From positions 25,927-89,926 of the forward strand of contig CAIKAF010000021.1 of NCBI GenBank assembly GCA_903825395.1: DNA of 64,000 nucleotides, written 5' to 3'. How positions within the stretch are numbered: position 1 is the stretch's first letter; each line of letters opens with the position of its first letter. This stretch comes from an uncultured Flavobacteriales bacterium (GTDB lineage: Bacteria; Bacteroidota; Bacteroidia; CAIKAF01). The notes under the pieces were generated by a model. It saw nothing but the letters and a program-made list of their open reading frames with translations. It searched no databases and was not told where the DNA came from. The position numbers and the translations under genes were made by a program. Shown here one piece after another: positions 2,397-11,559 of this stretch.

Positions 2397-5213
2397 TCAC
2401 AATTCTTTTGCTAAAAAGCGAGCCGTATGGTTGTCGTGTAAGGAAACGAAATCTTCCGGCAGACCTTGAAATAGCACTTGGCCTCCTTGGTTACCGCCTT
2501 CCGGACCTAAATCAATCAAATAATCAGCAGACTTAATCACATCCATGTTGTGTTCAATAACCACGACGGAATTGCCCTTTTCCACCAATTTATTTAACAC
2601 ATTTAGTAGCAGACGTACATCTTCAAAATGCAATCCAGTAGTGGGTTCATCTAAAATATACATGGTGTTGCCTGTTCCGGGGCGTTGCAATTCGGTAGCC
2701 AATTTTACACGTTGAGCTTCACCGCCAGATAAGGTGGTGGAGCGTTGTCCTAGTGTTAGGTATCCAAGACCGATTTCATTCAAAACGGAAATTTTTTTAT
2801 AAATGGATGGTATGTGTTCAAAAAACGTCACGGCTGTTTCTAAATTCATATCCAAAACATCTGAAATGGAGGCCCCTTTATACCTCACTTCCAATGTCTC
2901 TGAATTGTAGCGCTTACCTTGACAGGTTGGACACATTACTTCCACGTCTGGAAGGAAATTCATTTCAATGACCTCAACACCTCCACCACCACAGGTTTCG
3001 CATCGGCCTCCTTTCACATTGAAGGAAAAGCGACCTGCTGAATAGCCTCTAATTTTAGATTCTGGAAGCAAAGCAAACAAGGAGCGTATATCATTAAAAA
3101 CTCCGGTATACGTAGCTGGGTTGCTTCTCGGGGTTCTACCAATGGGAGATTGATCTACCCGTATTACCTTATCTAAATTTGAAATACCTTTAAATGAATC
3201 GTAGCGTAGGTTCGGCAATTCAGCCCGATTTAGGGTGTTGGCCAACACGGGATACATGGTTTCATTGATCAACGTTGATTTGCCACTTCCTGAAACTCCC
3301 GTAATACATACAAAGCAGCCCAATGGAATAGAAACATTAACGGACTTCAGATTATTTCCACTCGCTCCCAAAATACGCAATTGTTTCCCATTGCCTTTCC
3401 GGCGGATGGTTGGAGTTGCTAAGGATAGTTTCCCTTTTAAATACTGGGCAGTAATGGAATCTAATTTCATCATTTCTTTTGGAGGACCAGATGCAACAAT
3501 GGTTCCTCCATGAACTCCAGCACCAGGCCCTACATCAATTAGGAAGTCTGATTCCAGCATGATGTCCTTATCGTGCTCAACAACCAAAATCGAGTTTCCT
3601 GTATCTCTAAGGCTTTTCAATGCCTTTATTAGCCTATGATTGTCGCGTTGGTGAAGACCTATAGACGGTTCGTCAAGAATATATAACACTCCAACTAATT
3701 TTGAACCAATTTGGGTCGCAAGGCGAATACGTTGAGCCTCGCCTCCAGATAGAGTTCTTGCTCCTCGATTTAAAGTCAAATATCCCAAGCCAACTTCCAA
3801 TAAAAACGATATCCGGTGTTTTAACTCCTTAATCACTTCTGCAGCTACAGCAAGTTGTTTTTTAGACAAATGAGCAGGTAAATCTTCAATGAATTCATCC
3901 AACTCTACAATACTAAGTTTACTTACATCAATGATAGAACTTGAATTTAGGACAAAATGTCTAGCTTCAGGTTTCAATCGACTACCCTGGCAAGCCGAGC
4001 ATTCTTTAAATTCCATAAACCCTTTTGCCCAACGGTTTAATCGACTGCTGTGGTCATTTTCGGCCTGCTCAACAATAAACGGAGCAATCCCATCGAACCG
4101 AAAACTGCCAGTAACCCCAGAAATTGGGCTTTTAAATTTCAGCGGTTCAGGATGACCATTTAATATGGTTGCTCGAATTTCTTCTGGTAAATCCCCAATG
4201 GCATCATCCAACGAAAAGCCAAGAGCCCATCCCGCTTGTTCCAACTGCTTAAACATCCAACCTTGTTTTTGAGCACCCAATGGGGCAATCCCCCCCTTTT
4301 TAATAGATAGATTTGGATTGGGGAATATTTTGTCTTCGGCAACGACATTGACCTGCCCAATTCCGTTGCAAGTGGAACAGGCTCCGTATGGGCTATTGAA
4401 TGAAAACAAATTTGGTGCAGGCTCATCAAATGAAATGCCAGAGGTAGGACACATCAAATTTTTTGAAAAGAAAACGGGAGTAGAACTGTCTTTTAAAAGA
4501 ACCATTACGCTCCCCTTACCTAATTTCAATGCTACATCTAAAGACCGATCTAGCCGTTTTGTTTTTTCTGCCTCCACCAGAAGTGAATCCACTGCAATTT
4601 CAATATCGTGGACCTTATACCGATCTACCTTGAGTCCATGGGTAATTTCTTTGAATTCTCCGTCAATACGAACTTTTAGAAAGCCAAGCTTTGCACATCG
4701 TTCAAAAAGCTCTCTATAGTGACCTTTTCTACCCTTTACCAATGGAGCTAATATTTGTATGGATTGCCCTTGGAACTGATTTAGAATTGCATCCAGCATT
4801 TGCTTTTGGCTGTATCGAACCATAGGTTCTCCGGTCACAGGCGATAAAGCAATGGAAGCCCGGGCATATAAAACCCTCAAAAAATCATAGATCTCAGTGA
4901 TAGTACCTACGGTAGAGCGGGGATTTTTATTGGTGGTTTTTTGCTCAATGGCTACCACAGGGCTCAACCCATGTATCCGATCTACATCTGGCCGCTCAAG
5001 ATTCCCTAAAAATTGACGTACATAGGCCGAGAAACTCTCTAAATACCGTCTTTGACCTTCGGCATAGATCGTATCAAATGCCAACGAAGATTTCCCCGAA
5101 CCCGATAAACCAGTAATTACAACGAGTGAATTACGTGGGAATTCAACATCAATGTTTTTCAAATTATGCTCACGGGCACCTTCAACCCTAAGGGTAGATT
5201 TTCTTTTATCCAT
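2397..5213 (-). CDS. uvrA: Excinuclease ABC subunit A
   Basis: 938 aa; two ABC ATPase modules ([24 protein letters not shown]), zinc-finger cysteines and LSGGEAQR signature motifs. Confidence 0.95.
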
Positions 5214-5261: not shown

Positions 5262-6365
5262 TTATTTTTGGCTGTCAGTAAACTCTGTTACTTTATTGCC
5301 CTTTTTAATGGTCAAGCTATAAATGCTAAAACTCATGCTTAAGATGATACCCAAAATCAACATGAAATAATAGACGTTTAGTTTGCTAAAGGTAAAAAGT
5401 ACCACGACTCCTGTTCCTGAGCATATTATAGAAATAGCAGAAAACACAATGGCCGTTTGGCGCTCACTAAACCCTTTATATACCATATGGTGGGTGGTAT
5501 GGTCTCGGCCACCAATAAATGGTGATTTCCCGGAAATCAATCTATTAATAGTAACAGTAGCCGTATCCGTTATTGGGATAAAGAAAAACAGATAAATAAG
5601 CAGAAAAGCCCAATGTATATTACCAATAAATAAACCCGAACTTAAGCCGGTTGAATTTCCATTCCAAATTAACGGAATGCTTAACCCTCCAATAAACACC
5701 CCGAGAAACATGCTTCCCGTATCGCCCATAAACATCTTAGATGGAGACCAATTATAAAATAAAAATGCCAATAAGGCGGCACTTTCTCCGGCAATCAAAG
5801 GAAAATAAAGAGCATTGCTATTAGGCAAAGACCGAACAGCCATAATTCCGGCCAACCCCAAAAGGATAACAAAGGAAACTGAACTGGTAATGCCATCCAT
5901 GTTATCCAACATGTTCAAAGAATTCATTATGCCCACAATCCACAAAACGGTAAGGGCAGAATCAAGTATGGAATGGTCAAAAAGGTGAATCTTCAAACCA
6001 GATGAGGTCAAAATCAATCCACAAAGAAATTGACCAGCAAATTTGAGCCATGGCTTTGTATTGTACGCATCATCAGCCAATCCAATAAGAAAACCCAGCG
6101 TTACGGCTCCAGCAAGACCTAACACCTCAGGTTTTACTACATCATCCGGATACATTAGCATTGAAAAAACCAAGGAGGTCAAGAAAACAATGAAAAATCC
6201 AATTCCTCCAACCGAAGGCTTTACTGTTGTTGACCAACGAATCAGGTTTCCTTGATTTCGATTGCCCAAATTCGATGAAAATTTCAACAACAAAGCATAA
6301 ATCAATAAAGCCAAGCTGCCACTAAAAACAACGAAAAGGCTATATACTACTTCCGGTTTAAACAC
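5262..6365 (-). CDS. Glycosyltransferase family 4 (MraY/WecA-like polyprenyl-phosphate HexNAc-1-phosphate transferase), initiating enzyme for glycan assembly
   Basis: Polytopic membrane protein, 367 aa, with conserved MraY/WecA-type motifs (DDxxD-like LADDAYN, NMLDNMDG). Confidence 0.8.
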   Translation of the reverse strand: MFKPEVVYSLFVVFSGSLALLIYALLLKFSSNLGNRNQGNLIRWSTTVKPSVGGIGFFIVFLTSLVFSMLMYPDDVVKPEVLGLAGAVTLGFLIGLADDAYNTKPWLKFAGQFLCGLILTSSGLKIHLFDHSILDSALTVLWIVGIMNSLNMLDNMDGITSSVSFVILLGLAGIMAVRSLPNSNALYFPLIAGESAALLAFLFYNWSPSKMFMGDTGSMFLGVFIGGLSIPLIWNGNSTGLSSGLFIGNIHWAFLLIYLFFFIPITDTATVTINRLISGKSPFIGGRDHTTHHMVYKGFSERQTAIVFSAISIICSGTGVVVLFTFSKLNVYYFMLILGIILSMSFSIYSLTIKKGNKVTEFTDSQK

Positions 6366-6373
6366 GCTACAAA

Positions 6374-6919
6374 TTAATTGAAGGGAGTTTGAAAATCAGA
6401 AAAAAGCCCAGCTCGCTTATCCTTTTCTGAAAGAATAGGATTTTGAATATCCCATTGTATGTTAAACGTAGGGTCATTCCATGCCAAACCATCCTCGGCA
6501 TCTTTACAATAAAAATTGCTGCATTTATAAGAAAAAAGAGTAGGGGTTTCTAAGGCCAGAAAACCATGCGCAAATCCCTCGGGAATAAATAGCATTTCTC
6601 TTTTTTTATCGTCCAAAAGGAAACTTCTATGATGACCATAGGTAGGAGAAGAGCGACGGATATCCACAACCACATCTAAGGCAGCACCCCGAATCACGCG
6701 AACCAATTTAGCTTGAGCATGAGGCGGATGTTGAAAATGCAATCCCCTTAAAACGCCCTTTTCTGATTGAGACTCGTTGTCTTGAACAAAATCAACATCC
6801 AAATTCAATCGATTGAATACAGAACGATTAAAACTCTCCATAAAATATCCCCGATCGTCTTCAAAAACTCTTGGACGGAGCAAAATTAAGCCACCAATGC
6901 CGGTTTCAATCTTTTCCAT
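6374..6919 (-). CDS. rfbC: dTDP-4-dehydrorhamnose 3,5-epimerase
   Basis: 181 aa cupin; GLHFQ, RGLHFQHPPHAQAKLVRV and IPEGFAHGF motifs typical of RmlC. Confidence 0.9.
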   Translation of the reverse strand: MEKIETGIGGLILLRPRVFEDDRGYFMESFNRSVFNRLNLDVDFVQDNESQSEKGVLRGLHFQHPPHAQAKLVRVIRGAALDVVVDIRRSSPTYGHHRSFLLDDKKREMLFIPEGFAHGFLALETPTLFSYKCSNFYCKDAEDGLAWNDPTFNIQWDIQNPILSEKDKRAGLFSDFQTPFN

Positions 6920-6926
6920 AGTTGGG

Positions 6927-9428
6927 TTAATCGTTTCTTCCAGACCGCTTTTTACTTGGAAATAACCTTCGACTTAAACCAGACCAACTCATTGGATTTT
7001 TTCTTGCCCTACGACGGCGAATTTCCTCTTCATTGTCGTCACTTGTGTACCCATATCCATATCCATAACCATACCCGTAACCATATCCATATCCGTATCC
7101 ATAACCGTAGGCATATCCATAACCATAGCCATATCCATAACCACTTCCTTTGCGTCTAAACGGCGGCAAACCATTAATGACATAACTGATTTTCTGAATT
7201 TGGTTGGTGTCGTGGAGCCGTTCTAAGTTATTAATAAAGAACTTTCTAGAATAAGAGGCCCTAAACACATAAATAGGGTAATCTGCACGCCGCAAAACAA
7301 ATACACCATCCGTTACAATTCCTACCGGTGGATTATCCACCACTACAAAATCATAGGTTTTTTGCAATTCATCCAACATGTCATCCATTCGATGGCCCAT
7401 AATCAATTCGGAAGGGTTTGGAGGAATCGGCCCAGCTGTAATGTAATCCAGGTTTTCAATTTCTGAGGTTTGGACGCAATCCTCAAAGGTGTCTCGACCA
7501 ATTAAGATGGTGCTTAAACCTTTTTTGTTGGGGGAATTGAATCCTAAGTGAATTTTAGGCTTACGCATGTCACCGTCAATAACCACGACGCGCTTGCCAG
7601 CTAAGGCAAGTATCCCTGCAATATTTAAGGCGATAAACGTTTTACCCTCCCCCGAAATCGTACTGGTAACAGCTATTAATTTACTTCCAGGGTCAGAATT
7701 GATGAAATCCAAATTGGCCCGAATATTCCTGAAGGCCTCTGCAATGGTTGATTTTGGTTTTTTATCGACAATTAACTGGGAAATGGGGAGTCCAATCTTA
7801 TATTGAAATACAATACCTAAAAATGGCACTGAAGTGTGCTTGCTAACATCAGCAATTGATAAAATTTGATTAAACAAAAGATATCTGACAACGACAATCA
7901 AAAAACTAATTATAAACCAACCAACAAAGCTTCCTCCAACAACCAATTTCTTATTTGGAGATACGGGCGTATCGTTCGGTCGGCTATACCTTAAAACCCT
8001 GTAATCGGGAGTGTAACCTTCTCTTGCCAATGAAAACTCAGCTTTCTGTTGAATTAATTCGTCGTAATACTTCTCATTAACTTCATACACACGCTCCAAA
8101 CGCGCCAATTCAATTTGGTCAGCAATACTCTTTTCAATAAAAAGTTTGCTTTCAAGATCCTTGATTCGCTGTTCGTTTTCTTTGGTTTTAAAATCTAAAC
8201 TCTCCAATTGATATTCAACAGCCTTGGCCATCCGATTTCGAATCACATCAATATGAAAATCCAATCGCTTTATCTGATTGCTAGATTCTTGGAAATTGTA
8301 TTGCATAAGCTCGCGCTGAAGCAACATATTTTGAATTTGTTGAACCAATGATGCAACACCAGGACTATTTTGAACCTGGCTTGCTAAAATGATTGCTTCT
8401 CCAACCGGTGTGCTTTTATCTAAAATCTTCTGATATACCGTTCTTGTAACTTGAAGGGTAAGTTTTAATTCTTCAATTTGTTTCTGCAATTCAAGCAATT
8501 TCCCAAAATCTCCGGCAGTAGTTAATTCAGTCGTTGGACCATCAAGACCATATTTTCGCTGATACGATTTTAAGCTTGAATCTGCTTCCTCCAACTTATC
8601 CTTGATTAAACCAAGCGTCTCATCAATATAAGTGAGCATTTTATTGGCGCTTTCTTGTTTTGAATCGATATAGAAACTCTCATAGGCCATCGCCACGGCA
8701 TTAACCATATCGGATGCTCTAAACGAGTTTACATCGGTGTACGCAATTTTAATGGTTTTGGCTTCCTCATTTTCAATTTCAATCTCAAGTCCAGGCAAAT
8801 ATTTGCCATTCAACGATTCAGGATCATTTATAACAAAGTAGTGGAAATCGTTGGTCTCGTAATAGAAATCTGGGGCCCGCCATACAACTGTCAATTCAAA
8901 ATATCCAAACTTTCTGGGCGTATTTAAAGATATAGTTTCCGTTTCCTTTGTCTCATCAATTTCAAATCGAACAGTAACCGTTCTGTCTTCATTAAAATCA
9001 ACATGGATTGGAACTCCAAAAATCAATGGATTAACCTTTTCAATTTTTATGTAGTATGGCGCCTTATTGTAATTATCCGAAGACATTATAGCTCCTTTTC
9101 GATAATACGTCACATCCAAGGGGAGTGTATCGATAACCCGTTGCAAAAACACTGGAGACCTAAGCAATTCAAGTTCTCTGGCTAAATTAAGATCAAAAAA
9201 ACTACCCTGATTCAAGTAGTCTTTCTTATCCTCATCCGCTTTGGTAAGCTGAATTACGCTAAAGGTCTCAAACGTAGGAGTCGTATACCTCAAAAATAAA
9301 AATGCAGCCGCAGCAGAAATAACACCAAGCAGCAAAATAATCCAAAGGGAACGTCGGAATATCATTCCCAGCAATGCTGGGTCTAAATCTTGGTTTATGG
9401 CGGTAACCGGCCTACGTTCGTCGCTCAT
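6927..9428 (-). CDS. Polysaccharide biosynthesis tyrosine autokinase (Wzc/BY-kinase family), with a Wzz-like N-terminal periplasmic domain
   Basis: N-terminal TM plus long coiled-coil region, second TM, C-terminal P-loop ATPase (STISGEGKTFIALNIAG, VVVIDGDMRKP). C-terminal tail is (GY)n, i.e. the tyrosine cluster. Confidence 0.85.
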   Translation of the reverse strand: MSDERRPVTAINQDLDPALLGMIFRRSLWIILLLGVISAAAAFLFLRYTTPTFETFSVIQLTKADEDKKDYLNQGSFFDLNLARELELLRSPVFLQRVIDTLPLDVTYYRKGAIMSSDNYNKAPYYIKIEKVNPLIFGVPIHVDFNEDRTVTVRFEIDETKETETISLNTPRKFGYFELTVVWRAPDFYYETNDFHYFVINDPESLNGKYLPGLEIEIENEEAKTIKIAYTDVNSFRASDMVNAVAMAYESFYIDSKQESANKMLTYIDETLGLIKDKLEEADSSLKSYQRKYGLDGPTTELTTAGDFGKLLELQKQIEELKLTLQVTRTVYQKILDKSTPVGEAIILASQVQNSPGVASLVQQIQNMLLQRELMQYNFQESSNQIKRLDFHIDVIRNRMAKAVEYQLESLDFKTKENEQRIKDLESKLFIEKSIADQIELARLERVYEVNEKYYDELIQQKAEFSLAREGYTPDYRVLRYSRPNDTPVSPNKKLVVGGSFVGWFIISFLIVVVRYLLFNQILSIADVSKHTSVPFLGIVFQYKIGLPISQLIVDKKPKSTIAEAFRNIRANLDFINSDPGSKLIAVTSTISGEGKTFIALNIAGILALAGKRVVVIDGDMRKPKIHLGFNSPNKKGLSTILIGRDTFEDCVQTSEIENLDYITAGPIPPNPSELIMGHRMDDMLDELQKTYDFVVVDNPPVGIVTDGVFVLRRADYPIYVFRASYSRKFFINNLERLHDTNQIQKISYVINGLPPFRRKGSGYGYGYGYGYAYGYGYGYGYGYGYGYGYGYGYTSDDNEEEIRRRRARKNPMSWSGLSRRLFPSKKRSGRND
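7048..7142 (-). repeat. Coding hexanucleotide microsatellite (GGN-TAY)n encoding about 16 Gly-Tyr dipeptide units (one Ala-Tyr) in the Wzc C-terminal tail
   Basis: catatcc/ataacc/gtatcc units visible on the plus strand. The other reading frames give spurious HIHIHN and MDMDM ORFs. Confidence 0.85.
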
Positions 9429-9431
9429 GAG

Positions 9432-10349
9432 TTATTTTAAATTAGCCACAACAATGATGGTAGTGACTGAACTGGCCAAAAATCCTAATGCTGTCAAATA
9501 GGGATTAATGGCAGCAAAGAAGGTTTCAATAGGTCGAATTCTAGGTTCAATGTAAACAATGTCGTTGGGCTGTAAGGTCAAATCAGCCATTTTCATTCCT
9601 TCAAGTGTTGAAATGTCCATTAAATATACCTGCGGATCTCTCAAATCGCCCCGAATCACCTTTATTCGATGTGCCTTGCCATTCGGAGAAATACCCCCCG
9701 ACATGGCAATAACTTCAAACAAATTCATATTCTCCAAAAACAAAGGAACAACTTGCGTACCAGACCCAGTTCCATTGAAAAGAAATATTCTCCGATTACC
9801 GACGCCCACCTGAACAAAAGGATTTTTAATTTCCAATTCCTTATACAACCCTTCCAAATAGGCCTCTGCCTCTCTATTTGTCATGCCAGCTAAAGGTACT
9901 CGACCTACAATCGGAAGCTTACAGGTTCCGTCAAATTCAACCAGGGCTGAGAACCCTCCACCTCCCATTCCCACTCCTCCGTTCATTCCCATGCCTCCGT
10001 TCATTCCCATACCTGCACCCATACCTCCACCAATGCCACCATTTATTCCCATACCCCCATTCATTCCAAATCCACCATTGCTAATCATTGGCGCCCCATA
10101 ATCTCCCAAAATGGAAAAATTCAACACATCATTTACAGCCAAACGATATACCGTATCTACTTTTTCAGGAATTTCATCGAACTGATAATTGGCCGGAGTC
10201 CGTAACATGAAATTAGGCTGAAAAACCCTACAACCACTGCCTCCAATAAGCAGTGCCATGGCCAACATTCCTAAAATGATTTTAGACCTTAATTTCATGA
10301 ACAACATATTCCCGCAAATGTAGGAATTATTAATGTGCTTCAATGGCAT
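9432..10349 (-). CDS. Polysaccharide export protein (Wza/GumB family outer-membrane auxiliary protein) with a Gly/Met-rich low-complexity insert
   Basis: Signal peptide with lipobox-like GGSGC. Conserved Wza-like segments (PIVGRVPLAGMT, NDIVYIEP, SBB-domain-like GEV motifs). Insert NGGFGMNGGMGINGGIGGGMGAGMGMNGGMGMNGGVGMGGGG. Confidence 0.75.
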   Translation of the reverse strand: MPLKHINNSYICGNMLFMKLRSKIILGMLAMALLIGGSGCRVFQPNFMLRTPANYQFDEIPEKVDTVYRLAVNDVLNFSILGDYGAPMISNGGFGMNGGMGINGGIGGGMGAGMGMNGGMGMNGGVGMGGGGFSALVEFDGTCKLPIVGRVPLAGMTNREAEAYLEGLYKELEIKNPFVQVGVGNRRIFLFNGTGSGTQVVPLFLENMNLFEVIAMSGGISPNGKAHRIKVIRGDLRDPQVYLMDISTLEGMKMADLTLQPNDIVYIEPRIRPIETFFAAINPYLTALGFLASSVTTIIVVANLK

Positions 10350-11559
10350 TCAGCACGCTATAATTGATTCCTTTTTCAACAAGCAATTCCTCATACAATG
10401 ATTTAACATCGGTCACCAACCTGGAATAGTGGAACCGCTGACTAACCCAATCCCAGCCTAAGTCCCCCATAGAAACCCGCAATTGTTGATCTGAAATTAA
10501 GGCCAACATGTGCTGGACGAATCCATTTAAATCTCCAGGCTCCGCCAACAAGGCCGTTTTCCCAGGCAAAACCACATTTTCAATTCCCCCAACACGCGTT
10601 GATACAATCGGTTTTCCTGAGGCCTGAGCCTCAATTAAACTTACTGGTGTTCCTTCGTTTAAAGAAGTTAAAGCTATAATATCCAATCCCGCATTAATTA
10701 CATCCACATCCTTCTGCCAACCTGCAAATACAACATCTGCATCCTTCGCCTTTTCTGGACTCGAGGCATGAATTAGCCCCAATGCATCGCAGACTTTTTC
10801 CAGTTCGTTTCTAAGCTCACCATCGCCCACCAAAATTGCTTTAATTCGTTTAAACGAACTTCGTTTTGCTTGAGCAAATGCCTGCAAAAAGAAGGTATGG
10901 TTTTTTATTGGAACCAATCTGCCAATTATTCCAATGGCTATTTCATCCGGAGCTATTTGAAAGGATCGGCGGAAAGCAATTCGCTTGTCATGCCGATTCT
11001 CTTGGAATCTGAACAAATCGAATCCCAATGGTATTACCGTTACTTTTTCTGAAGAACAAATGCGGTGCTCTTCTACCAATTCTGTTTTCTGAAGGTCCGA
11101 TAAGGCGATAATCCGGTCTGTCCGACGGGCCAATCGCCGTTCCACCGATTTGAAAAAATGGGTCTTCGCCTTATTGAAATAGGAATGAAAAACATGACCA
11201 TGAAAGGTATGCACTACAATCGGTACATTGCAGGCAAAAGCGGCCATACGCCCCAATCCCCCCGCCTTTGAGGCATGAGTATGAACAATGTCCGGCTTAA
11301 AACGCTCAATAATGGATTTTATCTTGAAATAGGCCTTGATGTCATTGTTGTAGTGGAGAGACCTCTGCATCTCAGGTATCAATAGGGGATGAACTCCCAC
11401 TTGCCTCAATATGAAATCCGAAGAATCTTCACTATCCTCTTTTTGACCACCCACCAAAAGTGAGGTATATTCCGCACCCAAATGCTTGGTTAAATAGGCC
11501 GCATTGTAGGTGGGCCCTCCCAAGTTAAATCGGTTGATGATGCGTAAAACTCTTGGCAT
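10330..11559 (-). CDS. Glycosyltransferase, group 1 (GT4 family)
   Basis: 409 aa; C-terminal GT-B motifs (EGTPVSLIEAQASGKPIVST). Overlaps the wza start by 20 nt, so operonic. Confidence 0.8.
   Translation of the reverse strand: MPRVLRIINRFNLGGPTYNAAYLTKHLGAEYTSLLVGGQKEDSEDSSDFILRQVGVHPLLIPEMQRSLHYNNDIKAYFKIKSIIERFKPDIVHTHASKAGGLGRMAAFACNVPIVVHTFHGHVFHSYFNKAKTHFFKSVERRLARRTDRIIALSDLQKTELVEEHRICSSEKVTVIPLGFDLFRFQENRHDKRIAFRRSFQIAPDEIAIGIIGRLVPIKNHTFFLQAFAQAKRSSFKRIKAILVGDGELRNELEKVCDALGLIHASSPEKAKDADVVFAGWQKDVDVINAGLDIIALTSLNEGTPVSLIEAQASGKPIVSTRVGGIENVVLPGKTALLAEPGDLNGFVQHMLALISDQQLRVSMGDLGWDWVSQRFHYSRLVTDVKSLYEELLVEKGINYSVLNAIEAH

Follow-up and report, generated by a model that had tools for sequence, protein, structure and literature searches.

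The window analysed here is a stretch of 64,000 nucleotides from an uncultured Flavobacteriales bacterium (GenBank assembly GCA_903825395.1, contig CAIKAF010000021.1, positions 25,927 to 89,926). Its minus strand encodes a tyrosine autokinase of polysaccharide export, which carries a long run of alternating glycine and tyrosine residues close to its C-terminus. With a probability of roughly 0.8, this run represents the tyrosine cluster (Y-cluster) at the C-terminus of a membrane-bound autokinase of the Wzc/Ptk1 type in a Wza-Wzc export locus, in the form typical of Bacteroidota (a disordered Gly-Tyr (GY) run followed by an acidic patch and a basic amphipathic end), and it is not a contingency repeat. 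The gene and the run are located as follows, all coordinates being those of the window.

6927..9428, minus strand: gene of a Wzc/Ptk1-type bacterial tyrosine kinase (BY-kinase), 833 amino acids plus stop codon (Pfam, NCBIfam, PDB matches, AlphaFold2, Foldseek)
7047..7142, minus strand: (X-Tyr)16 tract, amino acids 763-794, putative tyrosine cluster and autophosphorylation substrate (repeat finding; position homologous to the E. coli Y-cluster)

In the open reading frame (ORF) listing of the window the kinase gene is a single uninterrupted frame, and the translation of 7047..7142 results in GYGYGYGYGYAYGYGYGYGYGYGYGYGYGYGY, i.e. 16 X-Tyr dipeptides, of which 15 are GY and one, unit 6, is Ala-Tyr (AY). 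A preliminary description of the stretch had named the same 16 units and placed them at 7048-7142, which is right within one base, as the true start lies one base earlier. It had also let the protein end in the repeat; in fact, 39 more amino acids follow the tract (795-833, TSDDNEEEIRRRRARKNPMSWSGLSRRLFPSKKRSGRND).

The repeat was analyzed at the DNA level with Tandem Repeats Finder, which reported a period of 6 bp for 7051-7143 (15.5 copies, 78% matches, score 102) and, with a higher score of 123, a period of 18 bp (5.2 copies, 82% matches). The pattern (GGNTAY)x4 has nine matches, every one of them within the tract, and does not occur in 100 dinucleotide-preserving shuffles of the window, so that the repeat is real and far beyond chance. 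The units are made up of eight hexamers, namely GGATAT (six copies), GGTTAT (four copies) and GGCTAT, GCCTAC, GGATAC, GGTTAC, GGGTAT and GGGTAC (one copy each), and identical hexamers are adjacent in at most two units. Together with the 78% of matches at period 6, this does not agree with a coding microsatellite, as the tract had been called.

The first eight units (7095..7142, minus strand) read roughly as 2.7 copies of (GGTTAT GGATAT GSCTAY), a pattern that points to the early duplication of a block of three units. Two further ORFs cross the repeat, at 6956..7159 on the plus strand and at 6989..7183 on the minus strand, with His/Ile/Asn-rich (HIHIHNH...) and Met/Asp/Val-rich (DMDMVMD...) products. 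Both were rejected as genes and should not be annotated, being by-products of the periodic sequence.

The tract was also considered as a product of faulty sequencing or assembly. Repeats may mis-assemble in principle, and nothing else was found that would speak for this explanation, which has practically no probability left. The 96 bp repeat is imperfect and lies within an intact frame of 833 amino acids, and an exact-protein look-up retrieved the identical protein from at least 10 contigs of several assemblies. Two of the matching loci, L084 and L085, differ from the window by 0 and 1 mismatches over 5,502 nt and have the identical tract. These independent assemblies rule an artefact out, and homologous tracts are present in the related loci L001, L081 and L082 as well as in dozens of other genomes. 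The look-up returns identical proteins only; it is blind to length variants and says little on polymorphism.

By sequence, motifs and fold, the gene product is a single-chain Wzc/Ptk1-type BY-kinase. The assignment to the Wzc-type tyrosine autokinases, already made in the preliminary description, is backed by NCBIfam, Pfam, the Walker motifs and Foldseek alike. With 163.9 bits, the match to the NCBIfam model TIGR01007 (polysaccharide biosynthesis tyrosine autokinase) clears the cutoff of 108.05, whereas the two equivalog models specific to E. coli, NF008568 and NF007350 (Wzc and Etk), stay far under theirs. The protein thus belongs to the family without being orthologous to either E. coli enzyme. 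Pfam detected AAA_31, GNVR and Wzz domains, with GNVR exceeding its cutoff (30.5 bits) and Wzz falling slightly below its own (23 bits, cutoff 25.5). Among sequences of solved structures in the PDB, the best matches are CapAB of S. aureus (E 1.5e-49) and E. coli Wzc (E 3e-44).

The AlphaFold2 model, with a mean predicted local distance difference test score (pLDDT) of 79.3, shows a kinase domain predicted with confidence, a periplasmic domain made up of helices, and two transmembrane (TM) helices. In Foldseek it matches the full-length E. coli Wzc structures 9exo and 7nhr best (E ~2e-37). The activator part of the protein is therefore present in the form of two TM helices on either side of a periplasmic Wzz/GNVR domain. 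Conservation was assessed in an alignment of close homologues (A1) and in an alignment of 47 sequences (A2). The following elements were located.

9285..9347, minus strand: TM helix 1, amino acids 28-48 (hydrophobic stretch LWIILLLGVISAAAAFLFL; AlphaFold2 helix H28-48; within the Wzz match at amino acids 19-102)
7953..9284, minus strand: periplasmic domain, amino acids 49-492, with the GNVR region at amino acids 440-516 (Pfam Wzz/GNVR; elongated coiled helices in AlphaFold2; structural alignment with full-length E. coli Wzc)
7875..7952, minus strand: TM helix 2, amino acids 493-518 (AlphaFold2 helix H493-518; aligned by BLASTP with the TM2 region of E. coli Wzc)
7719..7739, minus strand: ExxRxxR oligomerisation motif EAFRNIR with E564, R567 and R570 (aligns with E. 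coli EAIRSLR, E508/R511/R514)
7638..7652, minus strand: Walker A core GEGKT, amino acids 593-597 (regular expression; G595 and K596 invariant in A2)
7563..7586, minus strand: Walker A' VVIDGDMR, amino acids 615-622 (regular expression; D620 invariant and R622 nearly invariant in A2)
7326..7346, minus strand: Walker B VVVDNPP, amino acids 695-701 (regular expression; D698 invariant in A2)

The ExxRxxR motif is defined as the oligomerisation motif of helix alpha2 (PMC9800525), and its residues E564, R567 and R570 are nearly invariant in A2.

For the comparison with the best-studied member of the family, E. coli K-12 wzc was translated from NC_000913.3. BLASTP aligned INGLPPFRRKGSGYGYGYGYAY of the window protein with the C-terminal stretch ILNSIFRRASAYQDYGYYEYEYKSDAK of E. 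coli Wzc, and FRRKGSGYGYGY with FRRASAYQDYGY / FRRASAYQDYGYYEYEY. Due to this alignment, the start of the GY tract can be assigned to the start of the E. coli Y-cluster. The tract, which had been taken for an extended tyrosine cluster from the beginning, is thus well supported by homology as the C-terminal Y-cluster just after the catalytic domain, with 16 tyrosines in amino acids 763-794. It is predicted to be disordered, with a pLDDT below 50 over amino acids 758-800 of the model.

In Ptk1 of P. gingivalis, the tyrosines Y775, Y782, Y784, Y786, Y788 and Y790 are all reported to be phosphorylated (PMC6759763). Judging from Ptk1 and E. coli Wzc, the window kinase would be expected to autophosphorylate its cluster tyrosines in an ATP-dependent manner. 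According to reviews, BY-kinases differ from one another in how many tyrosines their Y-cluster has and in how these are spaced (PMC9800525, PMC4007543), and a mention of GY repeats in BY-kinases could not be found in the searchable literature.

The occurrence of such tracts was determined in a GTDB-based collection with one genome per species, which was scanned with an alignment of the kinase and its first homologues as a query. In total, 80 loci were identified, nearly all of them labelled as metagenome-assembled genomes (MAGs) of Bacteroidota, and 77 encode complete proteins. A search with the full-length protein had 48 matches, and one with the kinase domain alone had 775, mostly fragments on short contigs. 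The tails of the 77 complete homologues share one plan: a GY-rich cluster is followed by an acidic patch, typically YYEED, and by a Lys/Arg-rich end with hydrophobic residues.

The last 75 amino acids of these proteins contain a median of 12 tyrosines (range 5-19; window 16), and the longest X-Tyr run has a median of 8 units. Runs of at least 10 units are found in 28 of the 77 proteins and runs of at least 16 in three, namely in the window (16), in L004 (17 pure GY units) and in L013 (17). More distant homologues from outside the Bacteroidota have YYYY-type clusters instead. It is therefore normal for kinases of the Bacteroidota clade to have some 5 to 17 GY units, and the window kinase is a Bacteroidota (Ptk1-like) BY-kinase with a tract at the long end of a common distribution. 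The preliminary description had regarded the tract as far longer and more regular than that of a typical Wzc. This holds against the six irregular tyrosines of E. coli Wzc, whereas within its own clade, where long GY tracts (up to 17 units) are common, the tract is not exceptional.

Two of the 80 loci, L048 and L054, originate from bins labelled Candidatus Saccharibacteria, and their kinases cluster with Bacteroidota sequences. Species names such as 'Chitinophaga pinensis' or 'Chryseobacterium gleum' are attached to several further MAGs. In all these cases mis-binning or mislabelling is likely.

To what extent the tract is conserved, and on which level, can be seen from four related lineages and the near-identical assemblies. 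L081, a metagenome contig found by a flanking DNA pattern, is 90.4% identical to the window over the whole gene at the DNA level, without gaps. Like that of the window, its tract has AY as the sixth of 16 units; among the 32 codons, 13 (41%) carry differences, all of them synonymous. In the 200 codons upstream of the tract 46 differ, again all synonymously. The suggestion that synonymous variation between the units reflects maintenance at the protein level is strongly supported by these 13 synonymous and 0 non-synonymous differences at an unchanged number of units.

L001, from a MAG of an uncultured Flavobacteriales bacterium of Lake Erken, has 91% amino acid and 77% DNA identity to the window. 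Together with L082, to which it is 99% identical, it falls into the range of 77-80% DNA identity to the window, and both tracts have 15 units, with Ser-Tyr at the position aligned with the interrupting AY. Disregarding a short 5'-terminal gap, the alignment of these genes with that of the window contains a single indel, which is a 6-bp unit of the tract. The tract length across the relatives, a small sample, thus amounts to 16 units in the window, L081, L084 and L085 and to 15 units in L001 and L082. Within clusters of at least 60% identity the number of tyrosines is constant or varies by 1-3, and the columns Y764 to Y794 are invariant in A1. In sequence and approximate length, the tract is old and held at the protein level by purifying selection. 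Units are gained and lost, but on a timescale of tens of percent nucleotide divergence.

The codons within the tracts were analyzed for the 34 family members with at least six pure GY units. In 30 of these, no more than 1-2 identical hexamers stand in a row, and the maximum for the whole set is four units; the usage of Gly and Tyr codons within the runs equals that outside. With shuffling within tracts in 25 de-replicated lineages, adjacent Gly codons were identical 51 times versus 70 expected (P ~3e-4) and adjacent Tyr codons 87 times versus 102 expected (P ~0.005); since the de-replicated lineages are still related, these P values are approximate. Whole adjacent hexamers were identical 34 times versus 48 expected in all 34 loci (P 0.004), but with P 0.10 in the 25 de-replicated lineages this difference loses significance, and the two codon-level tests are the ones relied on here. 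A lag analysis of the hexamers across the family revealed a weak excess at lag 2 (z 2.4) and no signal at lag 3, despite the 18-bp period preferred by Tandem Repeats Finder in the window. If anything, the DNA of the tracts is less repetitive than chance.

These data bear on the explanation favoured in the preliminary description, in which replication slippage shifts the number of units often and thereby tunes the chain length of capsule or exopolysaccharide, so that the tract would act as a contingency locus. A period of 6 bp does keep the frame, the 16-unit lineages (window, L081) and the 15-unit lineages (L001, L082) differ by one unit, unit numbers range from 0 to 17 across the family, and the lag-2 enrichment suggests past growth by duplication of 12-bp blocks. 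Against it, two identical hexamers in a row are far under what drives slippage at a high rate, and the length is the same in independent assemblies and unchanged at 90% DNA identity, although 41% of the tract codons have been exchanged synonymously; one unit of difference is reached at 77%. Moreover, neighbouring synonymous codons are identical less often than at random, where a recently slipping repeat would show the opposite, and the agreement of codon usage in the tract with that of the gene points to an old, equilibrated sequence. Frequent slippage as the function of the tract is hence very improbable.

The tract is not a slippage-driven contingency repeat, and its unit number changes only slowly in evolution. 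To judge from the codon patterns, synonymous codons seem to alternate along these tracts in a way that suppresses slippage of the DNA, so that the tyrosine count would be protected and not varied. This codon alternation is a small but clear case of a repeat on the protein level which is encoded so as not to be a repeat on the DNA level.

In the 39 residues after the tract, four segments could be distinguished.

7023..7046, minus strand: acidic patch TSDDNEEE, amino acids 795-802 (sequence)
6999..7022, minus strand: polybasic stretch IRRRRARK, amino acids 803-810 (sequence; part of the low-confidence AlphaFold2 helix H797-809)
6960..6986, minus strand: motif WSGLSRRLF resembling the membrane-targeting sequence of MinD, amino acids 815-823 (F823 invariant in A1; BLOSUM62 match to MinD)
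6930..6959, minus strand: terminal basic residues PSKKRSGRND, amino acids 824-833 (sequence; Lys/Arg-rich ends are the family norm)

In the 77 relatives, the first five residues past the cluster are mostly E or D. The acidic patch together with a basic amphipathic motif is seen in L003, L004, L011, L013, L015, L041, L051 and others, and P0085 is a homologue without the basic tail.

The C-terminal sequence of MinD is a membrane-binding and membrane-targeting amphipathic helix (PMC8155659), and BY-kinases and MinD have a common P-loop ATPase ancestry (PMC4007543). The E. coli MinD C-terminus, translated from NC_000913.3, reads EEEKKGFLKRLFGG. For a quantitative comparison, the last 25 residues of each protein were scored against KKGFLKRLFGG with BLOSUM62. 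The Bacteroidota family reaches a median best score of 13, and 32% of its members score at least 20. As controls, 611 ORF C-termini have a median of 1 (0.7% at least 20) and 24 BY-kinases from outside the Bacteroidota have a median of 0 (Mann-Whitney P 1e-22 and 3e-7, respectively). Compared with shuffles of their own tails, the family members have a mean z of 1.96, with 47% above 2. The likeness in sequence to MinD is thus specific to the Bacteroidota family as compared with control C-termini and other BY-kinases.

The consensus K-K-G-[FL]-[LF]-K-[RK]-[LI]-F-[GKS], derived from the 47 proteins with a score of 10 or more, is usually located 0-5 residues from the C-terminus and preceded by acidic residues. 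Examples of such endings in relatives are EEEAEKKGNRFLKRLFKGRYD, EEDETENKGGLLKRFFSKKS and KKKGGLLAKLFGRL, and a relative with a strong consensus ends in ...KKGNRFLKRLFKGRYD. The window protein itself, with WSGLSRRLFPS, reaches 16 (z 2.5 relative to its shuffled tail), as compared to 2 for E. coli Wzc. Its WSGLSRRLF is a weaker match than that of many relatives and follows an 11-residue insertion. AlphaFold2 places a short helix at the motif (amino acids 817-822, pLDDT ~47-48), and the hydrophobic moment does not separate MinD, the window protein and its relatives. A literature search for MinD-like or membrane-targeting tails in BY-kinases revealed nothing relevant.

A rather doubtful extension of the Y-cluster assignment, suggested by the likeness to MinD, is that the Bacteroidota BY-kinases form a distinct architectural variant in which the MinD-like helix after the acidic patch and the polybasic stretch anchors the distal end of a long, flexible GY loop to the inner membrane. 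Progressive phosphorylation of such a loop would alter the electrostatics of the tail towards the anionic membrane and towards its own basic segment, and a step of membrane release or tail capture would be added to the cycle of ring assembly and disassembly. Should the MinD-like tail prove real, the GY tract would not be a free tail but form a loop held at both ends.

For the tract as a Y-cluster, a mechanism can be proposed along the lines of the homologues. As in E. coli Wzc and P. gingivalis Ptk1, the kinase domains would assemble into a ring via the conserved ExxRxxR motif, and the flexible tail would thread its tyrosines singly into the neighbouring active site, with the alternating glycines plausibly keeping the chain flexible and every tyrosine equally accessible. 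The built-up negative charge would then break the ring, a phosphatase would reset it, and the cycling between assembly and disassembly would be coupled to polymerisation and export of the polysaccharide. Disassembly of the ring depends on the overall phosphorylation level and not on particular tyrosines, and around four phosphates per monomer are estimated to break the E. coli ring (PMC9800525). With 16 tyrosines per chain, the window kinase would have a larger capacity for graded phosphorylation than E. coli Wzc with six.

In a different explanation, the tract is mainly a flexible spacer that lets the basic amphipathic C-terminal segment reach and bind the membrane at its inner face, or another partner, with phosphorylation being secondary. 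This is compatible with a role as Y-cluster, and as the principal function it is unlikely. The predicted disorder, the conserved acidic patch and MinD-like motif that come after the tract in most relatives, and a length above the need for ring disassembly in E. coli are in line with it. A pure spacer, however, would not need a tyrosine at every second position conserved over deep divergence, and the 16 tyrosines are retained without amino acid change versus L081 and as invariant columns in A1. In addition, the tract sits at the position of the Y-cluster, and the Ptk1 cluster of the same spacing is reported to be phosphorylated.

Composition and predicted disorder are also all that speaks for the extremely improbable alternative that the Gly/Tyr low-complexity tract drives self-association of the kinase by Tyr-Tyr contacts, as in Tyr/Gly-rich domains of eukaryotes, and that phosphorylation dissolves the assemblies. 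GY tracts are not linked to clustering of BY-kinases in the literature searched, and ExxRxxR, the established ring interface, is present in the window kinase and suffices in homologues.

Several points weigh against the assignment of the tract to an active Y-cluster with the proposed cycle. Three elements are inferred by homology, namely that the tract is phosphorylated, that a ring forms and that there is a link to polysaccharide length. The 16 tyrosines are far above the around four phosphates that break the E. coli ring, so the tract may have an extra role as spacer or tether; a different threshold or timing, or an additional spacer role, is suggested by this difference. The length stability is based on four lineages and on near-identical assemblies from the exact-protein look-up, with the limit of that look-up given above. 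Finally, no phosphatase partner was found among the window ORFs tested: no domain of low-molecular-weight protein tyrosine phosphatases (LMW-PTP) or of the PHP family was detected in 24 window ORFs scanned with Pfam, a scan that was not exhaustive and leaves room for a gene outside the window, and no C-x5-R signature occurs in any six-frame ORF of the window of at least 90 amino acids. In P. gingivalis, one of the two phosphatases of Ptk1 is not described as adjacent to ptk1.

The genes around the kinase gene were annotated as follows.

10330..11559, minus strand: group-1 glycosyltransferase gene, upstream of the Wza-like gene (Pfam Glycos_transf_1, Glyco_transf_4)
9432..10349, minus strand: Wza-like outer-membrane polysaccharide export gene, directly upstream of the kinase gene (Pfam Poly_export, SLBB)
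6374..6919, minus strand: RmlC (dTDP-4-dehydrorhamnose 3,5-epimerase) gene, directly downstream of the kinase gene (Pfam PF00908, E 6.9e-69)
5262..6365, minus strand: Glycos_transf_4 family gene of the polyprenyl-phosphate sugar-phosphate transferase type (Pfam PF00953, E 2.7e-28)

The order of group-1 glycosyltransferase, Wza-like, kinase, RmlC and Glycos_transf_4 gene is the same in L084, L085 and L087. These surroundings fit a small Wza-Wzc polysaccharide export locus of an uncultured freshwater Flavobacteriales bacterium.

The Wza-like protein contains a Gly/Met/Asn-rich low-complexity insert of ~45 amino acids (GGFGMNGGMGINGGIGGGMGAGMGMNGGMGMNGGVGMGGGGF) in its Poly_export domain (amino acids ~88-132), encoded at 9966..10079 on the minus strand by DNA for which Tandem Repeats Finder reports an 18-bp period. 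Among 15 relatives checked, the insert was found in the window and in L001 only and differs substantially between these two. From its sequence and distribution, it appears to be lineage-specific and fast-evolving.

In some Bacteroidota assemblies, furthermore, gene calling yields the kinase as a protein of its own with ~200-290 amino acids, which comes after a separate Wzz-domain protein. This applies to L087 (ENA ERZ10646678 contig_27111; genes 1404-2984 and 3001-3807), P0092, P0105 and P0106. These calls are located on very long contigs and are otherwise syntenic (group-1 glycosyltransferase, Wza, Wzz, kinase, RmlC, Glycos_transf_4). They could represent a true split architecture as in Firmicutes or frameshift errors in long-read assemblies.

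The tract itself is an ordinary finding, i.e. a well-conserved cluster of the Gly-Tyr type that is common in Wzc-like kinases of Bacteroidota, with equal or longer tracts already present in public genomes. Its value is comparative, as models of BY-kinases come almost entirely from E. coli Wzc with its irregular tyrosines, its free C-terminus and its threshold of about four phosphates. The Bacteroidota form has 10-19 regularly spaced tyrosines and a conserved acidic and basic amphipathic extension, and a discussion of either could not be found in the searchable literature. The interest thus lies mainly in the clade-wide architecture of the tail and in the codon alternation, and not in this locus in particular. 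If the tail binds the membrane, the current model of assembly and disassembly would be extended, and the different tract lengths found in nature would allow a test of how the number of phosphorylatable tyrosines sets the timing of the cycle and the chain length of the polysaccharide.

Compared with known systems, the tract shares with contingency loci the in-frame tandem periodicity of 6 bp and the gain or loss of one unit between related lineages. It differs from them in the absence of a long perfect repeat, in its stable length in close relatives and in a codon alternation that lowers the repetitiveness of the DNA. The family consensus of the tail resembles the membrane-targeting sequence of MinD, for which both homology and convergence are possible. 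In contrast to MinD, the BY-kinase is already an integral membrane protein, and membrane binding of its tail is putative.

CapA/CapB of S. aureus is the best sequence match with a solved structure for the kinase domain (amino acids 518-768), with 35-38% identity in Foldseek. There, activator and kinase are separate and the tyrosine cluster is short, whereas the window protein is one chain with a large periplasmic domain.

With E. coli Wzc, the window kinase has the fold in common, 29% identity over the C-terminal 380 residues, the Walker and ExxRxxR motifs, a Y-cluster that starts after a homologous FRR motif and an adjacent Wza partner gene, and the predicted disorder of the tract fits the flexible tail described for Wzc. 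The E. coli tail (AYQDYGYYEYEYKSDAK) differs in its six irregularly spaced tyrosines, which are followed by five residues only, and has neither a GY periodicity nor an acidic-then-basic amphipathic extension. Furthermore, E. coli has the phosphatase gene wzb between wza and wzc, without an equivalent at the window locus.

The characterised BY-kinase of the Bacteroidota is Ptk1 of P. gingivalis (PGN_1524), the best precedent from experiments, which was compared by its published description and tyrosine positions. It differs in its six reported phosphotyrosines versus 16 tract tyrosines here and in the gene php1 for a PHP-family phosphatase beside ptk1, none of which was found near the window kinase gene. 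Both proteins belong to the same phylum, have a similar length (821 and 833 amino acids) and combine TM segments and a kinase with Walker A, A' and B motifs in a single chain, and ptk1 also adjoins a wza homologue (PMC4082711). Five of the phosphotyrosines of Ptk1 (Y782-Y790) are spaced by two, as in the X-Tyr repeat of the window kinase, and ~30 residues follow the cluster (PMC6759763).

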